A DNA stretch of 64,000 bases from Candidatus Nanohalarchaeota archaeon (GTDB taxonomy: Archaea > Nanohalarchaeota > Nanosalinia > Nanosalinales > JAFCCC01). Under the pieces are notes generated by a model. It made no database searches. It was not told the origin of the DNA and was given only the letters and a program-made list of their open reading frames with translations. Below are positions 42,837 through 51,910 of this stretch, piece by piece. The stretch spans positions 112,424-176,423 of the forward strand of contig JAFCCC010000002.1 of NCBI GenBank assembly GCA_017610385.1. The letters are read 5' to 3'. A program made the position numbers and the translations under genes. Each line of letters starts with the position of its first letter. Positions within the stretch are counted from its first letter, which is position 1.

Positions 42837-44635
42837 CTGATGTATATTTAGATGGAGAATTAATTAGTACAACAAATAATGCAGAAAAACTAAGAAAATA
42901 TGTCATTACATCTCGAAGAAAAGGAGAATTAAACGAAGAAATTAATGTTTATTTAGATACGACAAAAGATGAATTAAGAATTTTAACTGATTCTGGAAGA
43001 GTTCGAAGACCTTTAATTATTGTAGATGAAGGGAAACCAAGGATTACAGAGGATCACCTTAGAAAATTGGAAACAGGTGAATTAAAATTTTCAGAATTAG
43101 CAAAAGAAGGAATAATTGAATATTTGGATGCTAGTGAAGAAGAGAATTCTTATGTTGCATTAAATTTAGAGGATGTAACCAGAGAGCATACTCATTTAGA
43201 AATGGATCCTGCAATTATTCATGGTTTATCTGCATCAGTTGTAGTTTATCCGCAATACAATAGAGGAGATCGTGTAAATTATGGATCTAAAATGTGTACA
43301 CAAGGGCTTGGAATGTATGCTAAAAACTTCCATTCTAGATTTGATACAAATTCTAATATACTCCTTTATGCACAAAAACCGCTTGTTTCAACTCAAAGCT
43401 CTGATAAATTAATTGGGACCCATCCAATAGGACAAAACATGATTATTGCTATTGCTTCTTTTGAAGGATATAATATGGAAGATGCAGTTATCATGAATAA
43501 AGCATCTGTCGAAAGAGGGTTAGGAAGATCATTTTATTTTAGAACATATACCACAGAAGCAAGAAGATATTGGGGCGGTCAAAAAGATAGGGTAGGAATT
43601 CCAGACAAAGACGTTAGAGGATATAGATCAGAAGAAGCTTATCAACATTTGCCAGATGATGGTATAATTAATCCAGAAACGTTTGCTAATGAAAATTCAG
43701 TTTTAGTCGGAAAAATGTCTCCGCCAAAGTTCTTAGGATCTTCAGAAGAAGTTAAATTGGGTCTAGCTGCAAGCAGAGAAACCTCGACAACGGTTAGAAG
43801 TGGGGAATCAGGAATGGTGGATAAGGTTTTAGTTTCTGAAACAGCGGGAGGCAACAAATTGATTAAAGTAAAATTAAGAGAAGAAAGAATTCCAGAATTA
43901 GGTGATAAATTCGCATCAAGGCACGGCCAGAAAGGAGTTATTGGTTTAATTATTCGAGAGGAAGATATGCCATTTACGAGAAATGGTATTGTTCCGGATT
44001 TAATTTTTAGTACTCATGCCATACCATCTAGAATGACAATATCTCATTTAATGGAATTAATTGGAAGTAAAGTTGCAGCTCTACGGGGCTCTTTTGTAGA
44101 TGGAACCGGATTCCATGGGCAATCTGAAGAGGACTTGAGAAAAGAACTACAAGAATTGGGATTTAGATATGACGGCAAAGAAAGAATGTACAATGGAATA
44201 ACTGGGGAATTAATTTCTGCTATGATCTTTATTGGCCCGATGTTTTACTTAAAATTAGAACACATGGTAGCAAATAAAATTCATGCAAGAAGCAGAGGTC
44301 CTGTAACATTATTAACAAAACAACCAACAGCAGGAAGAGCGAGAGAAGGTGGTTTAAGGCTTGGTGAAATGGAAAAAGATTGTTTTGTAAGTCACGGCTC
44401 TGCATTACTTCTAAAAGAAAGGTTCGGATCAGATTTTACAAGCACGTTTATTTGTCAGAAGTGTGGCGAATTAGCAGTGCAGGATAAAAGAAAGAAAATA
44501 GTTTATTGCCCAATTTGCAAAGACCGAGCAGAGTTAGTCGAAGTAAAAATACCACAAGCATTTATTTTACTATTAGATGAATTAAAAACACTACTAATTT
44601 CATTAAAGATAAAAACAGAGGAAAGTGAACTATGA
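42833..44635 (+). CDS. rpoB1: RNA polymerase subunit B'
   Basis: GYNMEDA, GDKFASRHGQKG, HARSRGP, GGLRLGEME, C-terminal Zn ribbon. Confidence 0.96.
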   Translation: MTDVYLDGELISTTNNAEKLRKYVITSRRKGELNEEINVYLDTTKDELRILTDSGRVRRPLIIVDEGKPRITEDHLRKLETGELKFSELAKEGIIEYLDASEEENSYVALNLEDVTREHTHLEMDPAIIHGLSASVVVYPQYNRGDRVNYGSKMCTQGLGMYAKNFHSRFDTNSNILLYAQKPLVSTQSSDKLIGTHPIGQNMIIAIASFEGYNMEDAVIMNKASVERGLGRSFYFRTYTTEARRYWGGQKDRVGIPDKDVRGYRSEEAYQHLPDDGIINPETFANENSVLVGKMSPPKFLGSSEEVKLGLAASRETSTTVRSGESGMVDKVLVSETAGGNKLIKVKLREERIPELGDKFASRHGQKGVIGLIIREEDMPFTRNGIVPDLIFSTHAIPSRMTISHLMELIGSKVAALRGSFVDGTGFHGQSEEDLRKELQELGFRYDGKERMYNGITGELISAMIFIGPMFYLKLEHMVANKIHARSRGPVTLLTKQPTAGRAREGGLRLGEMEKDCFVSHGSALLLKERFGSDFTSTFICQKCGELAVQDKRKKIVYCPICKDRAELVEVKIPQAFILLLDELKTLLISLKIKTEESEL

Positions 44636-47600
44636 GAAAAATTACACAACTAGAATTTGGGCTGGTCAGTCCTGAACGAATAAAACAGCTGGCTGTTAAA
44701 GAAATTACTAAAACAGAAGTGTATGATGCAGATGGTTATCCTGTAGAAGATGGGGTAATGGATCATCACTTGGGAGTCATTGATCCGGGAATGATTTGTG
44801 CTACCTGTGGAGGTAGAATGAAGGATTGTAATGGTCATTTTGGATATATTGACTTGGCAAAACCAGTAGTTCATGTGTTGTATGTTAAAAAAATTAGAAC
44901 ATTATTGAGATTTACGTGCACTAAATGTCAGGCATTATTAATGAAAGATGAAAAAGAGGGTTTTAAAAAAGGCAATTTATTAACAAAGTGTCCAAAATGT
45001 GGTGCAGAACAAAAACCAATCAAAATGGAAAAACCATATTTTTATTATGAAGGGGATACGCTTGTGAGTCCTGAAGAAATGAGACGAAGATTTGAAAATA
45101 TTCCTGATGAAACTGCTAGAAAACTAGGAATTAGAGGTGGGCGACCAGAATGGTTAATTTTAACTAGAGTTTTAGTTCCTCCAGTAACAATTAGGCCATC
45201 AATCACATTAGAAACAGGCGAAAGAAGTGAAGATGATTTAACACACAAATTAGTTGATGTTATTCGAATTAATCAACGTCTAAAAAATAATGTAGAAATA
45301 GGCGCTCCAGAATTTATCATAGAAGATTTATGGGAGCTTTTACAATATCACGTTTCCACTTTTATTAAGAATGATTTAACTGGTGTTCCTCCTGCAAGAC
45401 ACAGATCAGGTAGAGCTCTAAAAAGTCTAATCGAACGATTAGAAGGAAAAGAAGGACGATTTAGGCAAAATTTGATTGGAAAAAGAGCAAATTTTTCAGC
45501 AAGAACAGTTATCTCTCCAGATCCCAATATTGATTTTGATGAGGTTGGTGTTCCACAAATTATTGCACAAGAAATTACAATTCCCGTTGTCGTAAGAAAA
45601 GAAAACATAGAAGAAGCAAAACAATGGATTATAAACGGGGAAAAGTATCCGGGATCAAATTATATTATTAAAAAGGATGGTGGAAGAAAAAAGGTTACTG
45701 AATTAAACAAAGATATGCTTTTGGAAGAATTAATGCCGGGTTATAAAGTTGAGCGACATTTAATGGACGGTGACATTGTTTTATTTAACAGGCAACCATC
45801 TTTACATAGAATGAGCATAATGGCCCATAGAGTACGTGTTATGCCTTATAGAACGTTTAGATTAAATTTACTTGCTTGTGCACCATATAATGCGGATTTT
45901 GATGGAGATGAAATGAACTTACATGCGCCACAGACGCAAGAAGCGATGGTAGAAGCAAGAGAACTTTTGAAGATTACACATCATATAAAAAGTCCTAAAT
46001 TCGGGGGTCCGATTATTGGCTTCATTCAAGATCATGTTTCAGGACTTTATTTACTTTCTAAAGATACATTACCAAAGGAAGCTGCATTTAATTTACTAAT
46101 TCAATCAGGAGCCTATGACATGGAGCTTCCAAAAGGAAATGAAATCAAGGGAACCGACTTAATTAGTTTGTTTATTCCAAATAATATTAATTTAACAATG
46201 CCTGGTGCAACAGATGAAGAATTAGTCATAAAAAATGGAAAAATGATTTCTGGAGTTTTGGGTAAGAAAAGTATTGGAAATTATGGAGGAGAATTAATTA
46301 ACCAGATTTTATTAAATAATGGAGAAGAAGTTACTTCTGAATTTTTAAATAAAGTTTCTAAATTAGCAATTGCGTATTTGACAAGAAGAGGTTTCTCTAT
46401 TAGCACATCAGACTTGGAAGTTTCTCAAAAAGCTAAAAAAGAGATCAGAGAGTCTATCAAGAAAGGTCATAAAGCTGCTCAGGAAATTATTGATACATAT
46501 GAGAAAGGAGAATTAGAAGTAATGACTGGAAAAACCAAAAAAGAAACACTAGAAACAACTCTTGCAGTAAGATTACGATCAATTTCAACAGATGTTGAAA
46601 AGATTATTAAACAAGATATGGGAATGACCAGTGCACGAGTAATGGCAGAAAGCGGGTCGAGGGGATCTATAACAAATTTAGCGCTAATGGCGGGATTAAT
46701 GGGCCAAGAAACTGTGCGGGGTGCGCGTATTTCAAGAGGTTTTAAAAATAGAACTACGTCTCATTTTAGAGCAGGAGATTTAAGTCCAGGCGCTCATGGT
46801 TTTGTAGATTCGTCAATTATGGATGGTCTAAAACCAATTGAGTCTTTCTTTGATATTATGAGTCAGAGAGAAGGTTTAATGGATACGTCACTAAGAACCA
46901 GAACATCTGGTTATATGTATAGACGAGTTTCAAATGCCTTGCAAGATTTACGAGTAGAATATGATCTTTCTGTGCGGGGTGCAACAGGAACCATTGTTCA
47001 ATTTATGGCGGGAGAAGATGGAATAGATCCTTCAAAGAGTGATAAGGGAAAATCAGATCCAGATAAGATTGAACAGATGAAATTTGAACCAGGAGAAGCT
47101 ATCGGGGTTGTTGCAGCACAATCTATTGCAGAACCAGCCACGCAGATGACTATGGAAACATATCATTCTGCAGGTGCAGCAAAGGTATCTGTAACTTTAG
47201 GTTTACCAAGATTAATTGAATTGATAGATGCAAGAAAAAACCCTAAAACACCGTCTATGCAGATTTATCTGAAAAAGGAATTTAGCACAAAAGAAAAAGC
47301 AAAAGAAATAGCTTCTAAAATTAGAGAAGTTATGTTTGAAGATACAGTACAAGAAGATACTATTGATTTAATTAATTTAACAATTGAAATTATTTTGGAT
47401 GAAGAAATTTTAAAAGAATATAATCTTGCAGTTGAAGAAATAAAAGAAGTTCTTGAAAAAAGCACATTAACTGTTGATGTTACCGTGGAGGGAAATAAGC
47501 TCGTAATAAGACCTAAGAAAGATAATTATGATTTGGGTGATTTACAAAAGGTCAGAAAAAAGCTGTGGTCGATTCACGTCAAAGGAATTAAAGGAATTTC

Positions 47601-48192
47601 TCAAGTTGTTTTAAGTCAAGAGGGTGATGAGTGGAAAATTGAAACTGCAGGAACTAATTTGAAAAAAGTAAGGGAACTAGACGGAGTAGATGCGTATCGA
47701 ACAGTAAGTAATGATATTTTTGAAATAAGAAAGGTTCTTGGAATAGAGGCTGCTAGAAATTCAATCATAAATGAGATTCAAGACACTTTAAAGGAGCAAG
47801 GAATTTACATTGATGTCCGTTGGATTATGTTAGTAGCAGATACTATGACTTTGGATGGAGAAATTCATGGAGCAACAAGATATGGTATTGTAGGTGCCAA
47901 ATCTTCTGTATTGGCAAAAGCAAGTTTTGAAGAAACTAAAAAACATTTAACTAATGCCGCTATGAGAGGACAAGTAGATCATTTAAATAGTGTTGTTGAA
48001 AATGTGATTTTAGGACAATTGATCCCAGTTGGCACTGGTGTTATCAAATTAAGAGCCAAATTACCAGAGGTCGCATCAAAGAAAGAAAAACAGGTTACCA
48101 AAAAAGTTACAAAAACTAATGAAAAGGATAATAAATCAAAAACAGAAAAAGAAGGACCAATAAAATCCAAAGAAAAAGTGAAAAATAAATGA
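44632..48192 (+). CDS. rpoA: RNA polymerase subunit A, with A' and A'' fused
   Basis: NADFDGD active site; A' end (GEDGIDP) runs in frame into A'' motifs (PGEA.GVVAAQS..EP.TQMT, LGLPRLIE, ASFEET, GTG). Confidence 0.95.
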   Translation: MRKITQLEFGLVSPERIKQLAVKEITKTEVYDADGYPVEDGVMDHHLGVIDPGMICATCGGRMKDCNGHFGYIDLAKPVVHVLYVKKIRTLLRFTCTKCQALLMKDEKEGFKKGNLLTKCPKCGAEQKPIKMEKPYFYYEGDTLVSPEEMRRRFENIPDETARKLGIRGGRPEWLILTRVLVPPVTIRPSITLETGERSEDDLTHKLVDVIRINQRLKNNVEIGAPEFIIEDLWELLQYHVSTFIKNDLTGVPPARHRSGRALKSLIERLEGKEGRFRQNLIGKRANFSARTVISPDPNIDFDEVGVPQIIAQEITIPVVVRKENIEEAKQWIINGEKYPGSNYIIKKDGGRKKVTELNKDMLLEELMPGYKVERHLMDGDIVLFNRQPSLHRMSIMAHRVRVMPYRTFRLNLLACAPYNADFDGDEMNLHAPQTQEAMVEARELLKITHHIKSPKFGGPIIGFIQDHVSGLYLLSKDTLPKEAAFNLLIQSGAYDMELPKGNEIKGTDLISLFIPNNINLTMPGATDEELVIKNGKMISGVLGKKSIGNYGGELINQILLNNGEEVTSEFLNKVSKLAIAYLTRRGFSISTSDLEVSQKAKKEIRESIKKGHKAAQEIIDTYEKGELEVMTGKTKKETLETTLAVRLRSISTDVEKIIKQDMGMTSARVMAESGSRGSITNLALMAGLMGQETVRGARISRGFKNRTTSHFRAGDLSPGAHGFVDSSIMDGLKPIESFFDIMSQREGLMDTSLRTRTSGYMYRRVSNALQDLRVEYDLSVRGATGTIVQFMAGEDGIDPSKSDKGKSDPDKIEQMKFEPGEAIGVVAAQSIAEPATQMTMETYHSAGAAKVSVTLGLPRLIELIDARKNPKTPSMQIYLKKEFSTKEKAKEIASKIREVMFEDTVQEDTIDLINLTIEIILDEEILKEYNLAVEEIKEVLEKSTLTVDVTVEGNKLVIRPKKDNYDLGDLQKVRKKLWSIHVKGIKGISQVVLSQEGDEWKIETAGTNLKKVRELDGVDAYRTVSNDIFEIRKVLGIEAARNSIINEIQDTLKEQGIYIDVRWIMLVADTMTLDGEIHGATRYGIVGAKSSVLAKASFEETKKHLTNAAMRGQVDHLNSVVENVILGQLIPVGTGVIKLRAKLPEVASKKEKQVTKKVTKTNEKDNKSKTEKEGPIKSKEKVKNK

Positions 48193-48593
48193 ATATCAAA
48201 TTAGACGCGAACACCATACGAAGCATTAATGCATTTGAAAGAATTACGGGTGCAGAAGTACGTGATTGCATTATTGAAGGAAATTCTATATATTTTGTAG
48301 TAGAACCAGGAAAGGTTGGTTTAGTTATAGGTAAAAACGGGCGAACAATAAAAAAGGTTCAAGAGACACTCAACAAAAAAGTAAGAGTTTTTGAATATTC
48401 TGAAAAATTAAAGGATTTTGTTAAAAATATTGTCGGTGCATCCATTGAAGACGTTAGGAAGGAAGGAAGTGTCATTTTTATAACTTTTCCAAAAAATAAA
48501 AAACCTTCAATTATTGGTAGAGATGGAAAGAATATAGAACTAATAGTGAGACTATTAAAAAGAAACTTTGGAATTACCCAAGTTAAAATTTAA
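48189..48593 (+). CDS. nusA: Archaeal NusA
   Basis: Two KH domains (IGKNG.TI, IGRDG.NI); follows rpoA. Confidence 0.92.
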   Translation: MNIKLDANTIRSINAFERITGAEVRDCIIEGNSIYFVVEPGKVGLVIGKNGRTIKKVQETLNKKVRVFEYSEKLKDFVKNIVGASIEDVRKEGSVIFITFPKNKKPSIIGRDGKNIELIVRLLKRNFGITQVKI

Positions 48594-49285
48594 TAGCCGC
48601 GTAATTCTACTTTTGGAATATACTTTTCTAAAAGTTTTTTAAATTCTTCTGCAGTTGACTTTGGATATGGGGATTTAAACTTAAAATCTTTATTAAGAGT
48701 TATATCTGGCCTAAACTTTTGTAAAAAATATTTTTTACAACCACTTATTTCTTTACCAATTTGTAAAATATCGTTTCTTGAGATTAATTCTGGTAGAATA
48801 GTGGTTCTGAACTCATAATCAATAGAGGAATGCATAAGAAGGTTAACACTACTCTTTACTTTTTCTATATTCACATTGGTGTTAGCTACTTTATTATAAT
48901 TTTCAAATGGCGCTTTAATATCCATGGAGACAAAATCTATAATTTTATTGTCAAGCAATTTCTTTAGTAATTCTGGATTTGTACCATTCGTATCTAGTTT
49001 CACTAAAAAATGTTGTTTTTTGATTCTTTCGATAAAAGAATAAAGATCTTTTTGAAGAGTTGGTTCACCACCGGTGATTACAACTCCGTCTAAATAATTG
49101 ATTCTAGATTCTAAGAATTTAAAAAACTCTTCTTCTGGAATCTTTGGAATTTTTGATTCTAATACTAATTCTGGATTATGACAATAAGGGCATCTAAAAT
49201 TGCATCCAAATAGAAAAACAATACAACTTAATTGATTTGGGTAATCAATCAAAGAAAGTTTTTGCAATCCTCGAATATCTATCAT
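48590..49285 (-). CDS. nrdG: Anaerobic RNR activating enzyme (radical SAM)
   Basis: GCNFRCPYCHN, TGGEP, KLDTNG, EFRTT; directly downstream of nrdD. Confidence 0.92.
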   Translation of the reverse strand: MIDIRGLQKLSLIDYPNQLSCIVFLFGCNFRCPYCHNPELVLESKIPKIPEEEFFKFLESRINYLDGVVITGGEPTLQKDLYSFIERIKKQHFLVKLDTNGTNPELLKKLLDNKIIDFVSMDIKAPFENYNKVANTNVNIEKVKSSVNLLMHSSIDYEFRTTILPELISRNDILQIGKEISGCKKYFLQKFRPDITLNKDFKFKSPYPKSTAEEFKKLLEKYIPKVELRGY

Positions 49286-49289
49286 TGTC

Positions 49290-51545
49290 TCAATTATGTT
49301 GCAAACTTTTTATTACGTTATAAACTTTCCGTTCAGAAAATTCCTGCTGTTTTCCGTCATTCCAATCAGAAACTGGACGATAGAAACCTACAACTCTACT
49401 AAATACCTCACAAGGAGCACCACAAACAGAAGTTTGATTACTATTATTGCTCTCGTGCGGACATGTTCTATGTTCACCGTTTATATAACCGTGTTCTGGA
49501 CAAACACTAAAGGTAGGAGACAATGTAAAATAAGGTAATTTAAAGCCATGAGAGATTCTCTTAACTAATTTTTTAGTTGTGTCTAAAGAATCTAAACGCT
49601 CGCCTAAAAATGCATGGAAAACAGTTCCTCCAGTATATTTGGTCTGTAGTTCGTCTTGGTGTTCTAACGCTTCAAAAAGATCATCCGTGGCTCCAACAGG
49701 AAGCTGGGAAGAATTTGTATAATAGGGTGTTTGTTGGGTTCCTGCAGTGTGTATTTTAGGATAGGTTTTTCTATCTAATCTAGCTAATCTGTAAGCAGCA
49801 CCCTCTGCTGGTGTGGCTTCTAAATTATAAATGTGGTTTGTTTCTTCTTGAATTTCAATTAAACGATCTCTCATAAAATTTAAAACTTTCAATGCGAATT
49901 TTCTTCCTGTTGGCGTTGCAATACCTTCATTTAGAAAGTTTTCACAAGATTCATTCATTCCAAGTAAACCAATTGTTGAAAAATGAGTGTTTAAATGCCC
50001 TAAATAACGTTTGGTAAATGGCAAAAGTCCTTGGGCCATGTTTTTTTCAACTTCCTTTCGCTTAATTTCCAAACTGCTCTTAGCTAAATGCATTAAATGT
50101 TCTAGTTTATCAAAATACTCTTGTTCGGTTCTGGCAGTGTATCCAATTTTGGGAAGATTTATTGTTACTACACCAATACTTCCTGTTCTTTCACCAGAAC
50201 CAAATAAACCACCAGTTTTAGCACGTAAATCCTTCAAATTTAACTGCAATCTGCAACACATAGAACGAACATCAGTTGGCTTTAGACTGGAATTTACAAA
50301 ATTTTGGAAATATGGAGTTCCATATTTAGCAGTCATTTTAAATAACAAATCTGTATTTTCATCATTCCAATCAAAATCTTTGGTAATATTATATGTGGGG
50401 ATTGGAAATGTGAAGGTTCTTCCATCAGCGTCTCCTTCTAACATAATTTCACAAAAAGCCTTGTTAAATAAATCCATTTCTTCTTGAAAATCAGCATAGG
50501 TTTCTTTCTGTAGTTTGCCTTTATATATTACAGGCAGATCCTTTAAATCTTCTGGAACTTTCCAATCCAGTGAAACATTAGTAAATGGAGACTGGGCACC
50601 CCATCTGCTTGTCTGATTTATTCCAAAAACAAACATCTGTACTGCTTGCTTTACTGCTTTATAATCTAGTTTGTCATAGTAAATAAATGGGGCCATATAG
50701 GTATCTAAACTTGAAAATGCTTGTGCTCCAGCCCACTCGTTTTGCAAGGTTCCAAAAAAGGTTACAATTTGAGCTAATGCGGGAGATAAATGTGCTGCGG
50801 GTTTTCCGGATACTTTTCCACTAATACCACCGAATCCTTCTCGTAATAGTTGGGAAAGAGACCATCCAGCACAATACCCGCAGAAAGTTCCAGTTTCAGA
50901 ATCATGTAAATGAAAGTCACCTGCTCTATGTGCTTTAGAAATCTCTTTAGGGTAGACATTGTTCAAAACATAATCTCCCATAATTTTTCCGGAAATATGT
51001 GCTCGAAGTCCATTAAAGGAATAATTTAAATTTGCATTTTCTTTTACTTTCCACGCGCTTTTTTTAACATAAGAATCTACTGTTTTTTTAATATTTTCCA
51101 TCAGGGCTTTGGAAGACCTTACTTCAGATCTCTTTTGCCGATATAAAATAAAGCTTTTCGCAGTAATATAATATTCTTCTTTAAGAAGGATCTTTTCAAC
51201 AATATCTTGGATTTGCTCCACTGTTGGGCTTTTTCCATCAAATTTGTTTTCTAATTCATCAATTACTTCTTCACTTAATTTTTCAGCTAAAACTTCATCT
51301 CCTTGACCAGAAGATTTCATGGCTTTTTTTAATACCCTTGTAATTTTTTCTTGCTGGAATGGAACTAATCGACCATCTCTTTTTTCAATATTAATTATAT
51401 TGCTACCTTTTTGAACTTTTTCAAAAGTAGTAAATCTGCGTCCACAATTTAAACAGATTCTTCTTCTTCGATTAGAACTAAGATCTTGTGTTTTTCGTTT
51501 ATCAATAACCCTTGTTTGATCATGTGAACAATATGGACAACGCAA
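49290..51545 (-). CDS. nrdD: Class III ribonucleoside-triphosphate reductase with N-terminal NrdR-type Zn ribbon and ATP cone (start probably TTG at 51545)
   Basis: RCPYC...T.VID.R.....RRRR.C..CGRRFTTFE, KRDG ATP cone, GYCAGW, SMCCRL, SRVVGFYRP glycyl-radical motif; GGGGGA SD before the TTG. Confidence 0.93.
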   Translation of the reverse strand: MRCPYCSHDQTRVIDKRKTQDLSSNRRRRICLNCGRRFTTFEKVQKGSNIINIEKRDGRLVPFQQEKITRVLKKAMKSSGQGDEVLAEKLSEEVIDELENKFDGKSPTVEQIQDIVEKILLKEEYYITAKSFILYRQKRSEVRSSKALMENIKKTVDSYVKKSAWKVKENANLNYSFNGLRAHISGKIMGDYVLNNVYPKEISKAHRAGDFHLHDSETGTFCGYCAGWSLSQLLREGFGGISGKVSGKPAAHLSPALAQIVTFFGTLQNEWAGAQAFSSLDTYMAPFIYYDKLDYKAVKQAVQMFVFGINQTSRWGAQSPFTNVSLDWKVPEDLKDLPVIYKGKLQKETYADFQEEMDLFNKAFCEIMLEGDADGRTFTFPIPTYNITKDFDWNDENTDLLFKMTAKYGTPYFQNFVNSSLKPTDVRSMCCRLQLNLKDLRAKTGGLFGSGERTGSIGVVTINLPKIGYTARTEQEYFDKLEHLMHLAKSSLEIKRKEVEKNMAQGLLPFTKRYLGHLNTHFSTIGLLGMNESCENFLNEGIATPTGRKFALKVLNFMRDRLIEIQEETNHIYNLEATPAEGAAYRLARLDRKTYPKIHTAGTQQTPYYTNSSQLPVGATDDLFEALEHQDELQTKYTGGTVFHAFLGERLDSLDTTKKLVKRISHGFKLPYFTLSPTFSVCPEHGYINGEHRTCPHESNNSNQTSVCGAPCEVFSRVVGFYRPVSDWNDGKQQEFSERKVYNVIKSLQHN

Positions 51546-51552
51546 TAAAATC

Positions 51553-51599
51553 CCCCCACATCTTGTGTGTTTAGTACTAACAAACACAACATCTTGTGT
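51553..51599. promoter_or_regulatory. Tandem NrdR-box-like operators (51553-51568 and 51584-51599)
   Basis: ACACAACATCTTGTGT and CCCCCACATCTTGTGT, 31 bp apart, compared with the NrdR consensus acaCwAtATaTwGtgt; minus-strand TATA TTTATATA at 51638-51631. Confidence 0.75.
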
Positions 51600-51910
51600 T
51601 ACAAAAGTAAAACTAATTTGATTTGAAGAATATATAAAACCACATTATACAGAAAAATTCATGTTAAAAACCAAATGTTAGAAAATAGTTTTTAGAATAA
51701 ATACAACGATAAAGAATAAAGAAGCCATATAAAAGAAAGAGGGGTAAATTAAAAATCAAAAAGAGATACTATTTGTAAAAAAGCGAATTTTTCATAAAAA
51801 GAAGGATTAAAGAACGTAAATGTGATGTTCTTTTTTAGTGGTATTTTTCTTGGTAAATAAAGGGGTTAGTATTTAAATATTTCGTTCTAAGAGTAAATCT
51901 ACAGGTAAAA

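Follow-up and report, generated by a model that had tools for sequence, protein, structure and literature searches.

A stretch of 64,000 nucleotides from the genome of a Candidatus Nanohalarchaeota archaeon (assembly GCA_017610385.1, contig JAFCCC010000002.1, positions 112,424 to 176,423 of the forward strand), called here the window, carries a gene in which the zinc ribbon of the repressor NrdR runs in frame into NrdD, the class III ribonucleotide reductase (RNR), with the activase gene nrdG directly downstream. The gene product is best explained as a working anaerobic RNR bearing the DNA-binding ribbon of NrdR at its N-terminus, and two NrdR boxes lie in the leader of the gene. The two genes and the domains of the fusion are arranged as follows:

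49290..51587, reverse strand: open reading frame (ORF) that includes the fusion gene
49293..51545, reverse strand: coding sequence of the NrdR-ribbon–NrdD fusion, 751 amino acids (aa), TTG start, stop codon at 49290-49292
51420..51545, reverse strand: NrdR-type zinc ribbon, residues 1-42, with CPYC, RRRR, CLNC and RFTTFE (PF22811)
51123..51392, reverse strand: single ATP-cone of RNR type, residues 52-141 (PF03477 and the cone tree)
49320..51041, reverse strand: class III RNR catalytic core, residues 169-742 (PF13597, alignment to 4COI and motif columns)
48590..49285, reverse strand: nrdG, radical-SAM activase of the class III RNR (TIGR02495; Pfam Radical_SAM)

An earlier note, made from the DNA letters and their ORFs, had described an NrdR ribbon, one ATP cone and an intact class III core in a single frame, and both the Pfam and the NCBIfam models agree with it. 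In the profile check of the architecture that the note had proposed, the Zn_ribbon_NrdR domain (PF22811) reached 58.1 bits over residues 1-42 (cut-off 27.2), the ATP-cone (PF03477) 82.5 bits over residues 52-141 and the NRDD domain (PF13597) 609.9 bits over residues 169-742, whereas the whole-NrdR model TIGR00244 remained at 66.1 bits, below its cut-off of 124.65. Among the NCBIfam models, NF006126, which describes NrdD with a cone, scored 1048.9 bits over residues 51-744 (cut-off 548), and TIGR02487 gave 510.5 bits (cut-off 326.35). The best start codon is the TTG at 51545, giving the N-terminus MRCPYC, since all homologues begin with M-x-C-P/I and a G-run lies 5 nt upstream. The frame runs on between the domains with no stop, as it does on more than 30 independent contigs. 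The catalytic motifs, namely MCCRL at 429-433, which we take to be the active-site Cys loop, a C-terminal Cys cluster (CPEHGY...CP...C..C) and RVVGFY at 717, presumably the glycyl-radical segment, align with those of active homologues and of the solved NrdD 4COI. The activase gene nrdG starts 4 nt downstream of the fusion gene (TIGR02495, 214.7 bits, cut-off 131.15). A two-copy complex prediction for the ribbon-cone module (residues 1-150) scored 0.27, the mark being 0.42.

Proteins that join an NrdR ribbon to NrdD were found in three layouts. Type A, that of the window, consists of the ribbon, one cone and NrdD; type B of a complete NrdR, the NrdD cone and NrdD (P0007, P0008, L118); and type C of a complete NrdR followed by a cone-less NrdD subclass (P0018, L120-L122). 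A DNA pattern built from protein motifs only (the ribbon start, RFTT and the TAKxxILYR of the RNR cone) matched 33 metagenome contigs, in 29 of which the frame continues into the NrdD core; two frames run off the contig, one ends at 273 aa and one is the fusion read from another ATG. The ribbon of the window protein aligns residue for residue with that of Streptomyces coelicolor NrdR (7P37), and position by position also with Escherichia coli NrdR (9FVR). In the S. coelicolor protein, R12, R26-29 and R37 contact the DNA backbone, and D15 and R17 the bases (PMC9110341); all these contact residues are found at the same numbers in the window protein. Across 34 type-A sequences, R17, R26-29, R37 and the four Cys were kept in all 34, D15 in 33, and position 12 was basic in 33, even though the fusions are only 44-66% identical to one another; the search pattern itself dictated C3, F38, T39 and T40, which were not counted as evidence of conservation. 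Judged from this comparison, the ribbon is under selection.

The leader of the fusion gene resembles the operators of known NrdR proteins, in which 16-bp palindromic tandem boxes with a 15-bp spacer stand upstream of an RNR operon. It differs from them in its archaeal setting with a promoter of TATA type:

51631..51638, reverse strand: TATA-like element TTTATATA, predicted archaeal promoter, 39 nt before box 1 begins
51584..51599, reverse strand: NrdR box 1, ACACAAGATGTTGTGT, the sole exact core match in the genome
51553..51568, reverse strand: NrdR box 2, ACACAAGATGTGGGGG, a one-mismatch core site
51551..51557, reverse strand: Shine-Dalgarno-like GGGGGGA, 5 nt before the TTG, read from the sequence

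Both boxes sit between the TATA-like element and the TTG start. The two 16-bp sites 31 bp apart that the earlier note describes were recovered, as was the match of one of them, box 1, at 14 of 16 positions to the consensus acaCwAtATaTwGtg (quoted in PMC4009431) when this is read as a palindrome. The start-to-start distance of 31 bp leaves a spacer of 15 bp, which falls inside the 15-17 bp optimum measured for four bacterial NrdRs, a spacer of 24-27 bp coming second (PMC12051234). The first 11 nt of box 2 are identical to those of box 1 and the conserved C4 and G13 are kept; its 3' half merges into the ribosome-binding G-run, so that the overlap of the second site with the Shine-Dalgarno sequence also held. 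Homologous loci have GAGGTG where the window has GGGGGGA. The TATA-to-start distance usual in archaea would put the start of transcription about 10 nt ahead of box 1 and the boxes at roughly +10 to +57, a region that includes the ribosome-binding site. Six of 22 paired loci have a TATA-like element at -38 to -40 relative to box 1, and six more have one at -15 to -29. The type-A locus L119 has two box pairs, at -152/-120 and -64/-33, which flank a TATA-like element, an arrangement from -152 to -18 that suggests a double operator.

Such boxes are scarce elsewhere in the genome. In the 64-kb window, five box matches were found at three mismatches or fewer where 0.63 were expected, a number that none of 100 shuffles reached. 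Throughout the 788,277-bp genome, the 10-position core CACNANATNTNGTG has one exact site, which is box 1, and 21 one-mismatch sites, box 2 included. Boxes 1 and 2 form the sole strong pair (zero plus one mismatch) at a distance of 30-33 or 41-43 bp, and no pair meeting the spacing criterion appeared in five shuffled genomes. A further weak pair (two plus one mismatches, 30 bp apart) at C11:134524-134567, which corresponds to about 22101 of the window, and one other genome site within two mismatches of box 1, at C17:1019, are at chance level.

The boxes travel with the fusion, a co-occurrence that the earlier note had proposed to check. Type-A loci, located by protein motifs only, were collapsed at 90% identity in their first 150 residues to 31 clusters, the window included, after a locus with a misread start (L143) and a truncated variant (L132) had been dropped; 28 of these clusters had at least 150 nt of upstream DNA, L144, L151 and L154 being too short. 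Counting as a site any match in the 200 nt upstream whose core has no more than one mismatch, we found at least one box in 24 of the 28 loci and a pair at 30-33 or 41-43 bp in 21. Elsewhere in these loci, 262,826 nt contained 11 sites, a background of 0.008 per 200 nt, which makes the enrichment upstream of the fusions about 100-fold. Fusions from other genomes behaved likewise, with boxes in six of seven (L118-L123 and L038), among them the type-B locus L118 and the type-C loci L121 and L122.

Within the window genome (788,277 bp in 18 contigs, 93.5% complete), the ribbon of the fusion is the single Zn_ribbon_NrdR match above threshold, and the profile search for a stand-alone nrdR, whose absence the earlier note had asked to be confirmed, found none in the 93.5% that is covered. 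Any NrdR-ribbon protein encoded there that binds the boxes would therefore be the enzyme itself. The fusion also holds the one real ATP-cone and the one NRDD domain of the genome, and no class I/II RNR catalytic domain was found in it. Two weak ATP-cone matches proved to be an FttA-like nuclease and a PPDK-like enzyme, and a weak ribbon match on C14 (E 0.25, 10 model positions) was dismissed as noise. Similarly, seven other fusion genomes (G070, G186, G394, G370, G213, G217 and G248) gave one zinc-ribbon match each, and no second ribbon gene was present on the 33 metagenome contigs, which are contigs and not whole genomes (248 kb in total).

Relatives of the window organism are differently equipped. 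In a sample of 70 genomes of its phylum, all from one order, the ribbon was found in 61, and in the 60 other than the window genome it lies in a frame of at most 273 aa, that is, a stand-alone nrdR. In 30 loci of these relatives nrdR is closely followed by a larger gene, which carries class I/II RNR domains in L016, the sole locus checked, and in 12 of the 30 a box (at most four mismatches) stands upstream of nrdR, some of these boxes being almost identical to box 1 of the window. NrdD occurs in only two of the 70 genomes. With nrdR beside a class I/II RNR as the norm of the phylum, the fusion gene is foreign to that arrangement.

As a family, the fusion is rare in clustered protein sets and recurrent in metagenomes. 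A word-indexed protein search retrieved further ribbon, cone and NRDD proteins (P0004-P0008 and P0018), one of which, P0007, bears the automatic JGI name NrdD/transcriptional regulator NrdR. An exhaustive HMMER search with fusion residues 1-165 against 1.84 billion cluster representatives returned seven proteins at E <= 1e-30, and the layout is thus rare at that clustering level. In a scan of species-representative genomes, which gave at least 600 candidates, one fusion (L038) was among the best 80. The ribbon was found in 317 of 401 sampled genomes of the phylum to which L038 belongs, six unpublished ones included, and at least eight ribbons lay in frames of 758-1158 aa among the 150 matches listed (169 others unlisted); one of the eight belongs to an unpublished genome and was left out of the locus comparison. 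In the trees, all of which were built with FastTree only, the window protein has L133 as its sister (core identity 69%, support 96) and groups with the type-A proteins L145 and L154, the enzyme-dead P0004 and P0036 and the apparently unfused P0011, which is the closest non-fused NrdD (63% identical core) and has an odd N-terminus, L-A-D-G-C. The majority of the remaining fusions of types A and B fall into a clade of their own (support 100), and those of type C into another. These well-supported branches imply at least two origins or losses of the fusion.

Several family members depart from the basic plan. L145 (6326-8416) and L154, close relatives of type A (core identity 64-67%), stop immediately behind the first CP of the Cys cluster, the glycyl-radical segment lying outside the same ORF; the gene may be split, the segment may have a small ORF of its own, or there may be a frameshift. 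Fusions of 1015-1443 aa (P0005/L125, P0006, P0038/L130, L038/L155, L148 and L150) have an NrdD core interrupted by one or two large insertions, so that Pfam NRDD is matched in two stretches. By eye these insertions look intein-like, and no intein family was matched in them by Pfam at the threshold used. P0041 (146 aa) consists of the ribbon and RNR-type cone module alone, and in P0040 (348 aa) the ribbon-cone module precedes a C-terminal region of another kind, about 200 aa long, in which Pfam matched nothing. This module of ribbon and RNR-type cone seems to be mobile.

In a tree of 157 cones, a split with support 99 holds the window cone and 67 cones of unfused RNRs, together with all seven type-A cones, three second cones of type B and no NrdR cone. 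The best solved relatives of the window cone are the NrdB cone of L. blandensis (5OLK) and the NrdD of Prevotella copri (8P23). Types B and C resemble the window protein in having NrdR ribbon and NrdD in one polypeptide and differ from it in that they keep the NrdR-type cone. The linker between ribbon and cone is about two residues longer in the window protein than in S. coelicolor NrdR, and the cone motifs KRDG, VEQIQD and TAKxxILYR are invariant or nearly so across the fusions. The RNR-type cone of the enzyme thus seems to have taken the place of the NrdR cone at the homologous position; a deletion running from one cone to the other in a type-B ancestor may have brought this about. On this point the reading of the earlier note calls for correction: the single cone is of the RNR type, and with the NrdR-type cone lost, the ATP plus deoxyadenosine triphosphate (dATP) logic of NrdR is not simply transferable, and in type A one cone must serve both roles.

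Two relatives have dispensed with catalysis. P0004 (637 aa) and P0036 (639 aa) are without the CC loop, the NLEATPAE segment and the whole glycyl-radical domain, and their ribbon and cone are nevertheless 49-55% identical to those of the window protein. That ribbon and cone are kept in enzyme-dead forms argues for an N-terminal module with a function of its own, and makes both proteins candidates for pure repressors on an NrdD scaffold. Their NrdD bodies lie on long branches.

Taking these observations together, we consider it probable that the fusion enzyme binds the boxes of its own leader and represses its own gene, and that a tetramer favoured by dATP would shut off enzyme and gene alike. 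In this scheme, the zinc-ribbon pairs presented by NrdD dimers would bind the two palindromic boxes, which would span about +10 to +57 relative to the predicted transcription start of nrdD-nrdG and of which one covers the ribosome-binding site; the binding would bend the DNA and block the archaeal transcription machinery, so that the enzyme would repress its own synthesis. The DNA-binding form would most likely be a tetramer of two NrdD dimers, since it takes four ribbons to occupy two boxes spaced by three helical turns, and dATP on the cone would favour the tetramer and turn catalysis off, such that high dATP would stop both the enzyme and its gene. The tetramer and dATP steps lean on findings in other systems. 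The NrdR tetramer presents two ribbon pairs 80 Å apart (PMC9110341), and dATP shifts P. copri NrdD to tetramers with ordered cone pairs and inhibits its catalysis (PMC11226230). The P. copri enzyme (8P23-8P2S) has an ATP-cone, an NrdD core and an adjacent NrdG as the fusion does, and the cone of the fusion may behave like the P. copri one. The DNA binding, repression, transcription start, tetramer stoichiometry and dATP dependence of the fusion are what we infer, and among them self-repression by the enzyme appears well supported by comparison. The interpretation offered in the earlier note, one cone governing both catalysis and DNA binding in a self-repressing enzyme, appears partly supported, with the comparative tests all in its favour.

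A number of points weigh against this proposal. The most serious concerns oligomerization: cone-cone contacts set up the DNA-binding tetramer of NrdR, with double occupancy by ATP and dATP (PMC9110341), and as the NrdR-type cone is absent from the fusion, so are these contacts. The geometry of the ribbons must then come from the NrdD body, which is the main weakness of the scheme. Box 2 is weak in its 3' half, with 5 of 16 positions off a strict palindrome; four of the 28 fusion loci have no box within 200 nt, and none was found at the type-C locus L120; in L123 and L140 the boxes are a long way from the start codon or precede the closest TATA-like element; and a genome completeness of 93.5% leaves room for a missed nrdR.

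A bolder form of the same idea, which we put forward tentatively, is that a single RNR-type cone is the switch for two outputs, dATP silencing catalysis and at the same time driving the dimers into tetramers whose two ribbon pairs clamp the operator, so that the enzyme would be its own dNTP-sensing repressor, and that in P0004 and P0036 the dead catalytic body would survive only as the oligomerization scaffold of a large repressor.

Alternatively, the fusion could bind the boxes and repress itself with no nucleotide gating, the ribbon pair of any NrdD dimer binding each box whatever the state of the cone, as in simple negative feedback through the amount of protein. The loss of the NrdR-type cone that senses ATP and dATP speaks for such ungated binding, as does the report that apo-NrdR is already dimeric through its ribbons (PMC12176259). 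Yet ribbon and cone still join where they do in NrdR, the linker being barely longer, the nucleotide-binding motifs of the cone hardly vary, the cone is retained even in the enzyme-dead forms, and helically phased tandem boxes imply a higher oligomer, which leads us to regard this alternative as rather unlikely. Far less credible is that the ribbon is a relic or structural appendage and the boxes remnants of an ancestral stand-alone NrdR, with nothing binding them. The use of a stand-alone nrdR beside a class I/II-type RNR in the same phylum makes a recent replacement conceivable, but contact residues kept in 33-34 of 34 divergent fusions, the strong enrichment of boxes upstream of them and the old clades that the fusion forms are hard to reconcile with disuse. 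We give still less credence to the idea that the boxes serve another factor and that the NrdD ribbon does something else, such as binding the leader RNA or tethering the enzyme to DNA. The overlap of box 2 with the ribosome-binding site makes a translational effect conceivable; however, no other NrdR-type ribbon was found in the genome, and the NrdR ribbon is known to bind double-stranded DNA boxes of this kind (PMC9110341). Control at the RNA level was rejected, as the leader (51520-51610) folds no better than its shuffles (z = +0.55; 143 of 200 fold at least as well) and an Rfam scan of it gave no family at threshold, with one sub-threshold chance match. Finally, an assembly or sequencing artefact joining adjacent nrdR and nrdD genes, for which the nrdR found 30-50 bp upstream of cone-bearing RNR genes in the related archaea L040, L043, L056 and L087 might be invoked, is extremely improbable and was rejected, because read-through would yield two cones where the fusion has one, an identical protein occurs on contigs of different lengths (P0002 and P0003, three contigs each), and the same one-cone layout is seen on 33 independent metagenome contigs.

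Apart from this system, the window encodes RNA polymerase subunit A (44632-48192, forward strand) as a single ORF of 1186 aa with Rpb1 domains 1-5; most archaea split this subunit into A' and A''.

NrdR as known is a stand-alone protein of about 140-220 aa that carries an NrdR-type cone, whereas the fusion is a continuous 751-aa protein with NrdD and uses the RNR-type cone of the enzyme. To our knowledge, no described NrdD has a DNA-binding domain. PutA and BirA are single polypeptides that act both as a metabolic enzyme and as the repressor of their own operon, the ligand state coupling the two roles; their folds and DNA-binding domains are unrelated to those of the fusion, and we know of no enzyme-repressor of this kind described for ribonucleotide reductase. 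The literature, in the portions accessible to us, mentions recombinant tags and reporter fusions but no natural NrdR-RNR fusion, in agreement with the earlier note, which knew of no characterised example; archaeal NrdRs or fusions could still appear among the supplementary taxon tables of PMC9110341 and PMC12051234, and the JGI name of P0007 already shows the dual domains. What would be new is not the pairing of domains, which automatic annotation had recorded, but NrdR-type control carried by the enzyme itself. This probably self-regulating arrangement appears undescribed, and it recurs in related uncultured archaea.

These data also extend the range of NrdR in archaea. NrdR or its boxes have been called rare or absent there (PMC4009431; a 2025 bioRxiv preprint), and PMC9110341 speaks of NrdR in 'some archaea'. 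In the small archaea sampled here (61 of 70 and 317 of 401 genomes), NrdR ribbon genes were usually stand-alone and often beside an RNR gene with boxes upstream, which makes NrdR-type regulation common in small uncultured archaea, contrary to reviews. With a protein and a 60-bp operator small enough for direct biochemistry and cryo-electron microscopy, the fusion bears on whether a bacterial-type repressor module can work at an archaeal TATA/TFB promoter, and on how an ATP-cone passes nucleotide state to different outputs. It bears likewise on the birth of regulators from enzymes, given that active, two-cone, one-cone and enzyme-dead forms all exist. Ribonucleotide reductases are controlled both in enzyme activity and in gene expression, in each case through ATP-cones, and in all studied systems known to us the cones for the two levels are on separate proteins. 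In the archaeon studied here, both levels of control appear to have collapsed into one molecule with one cone.

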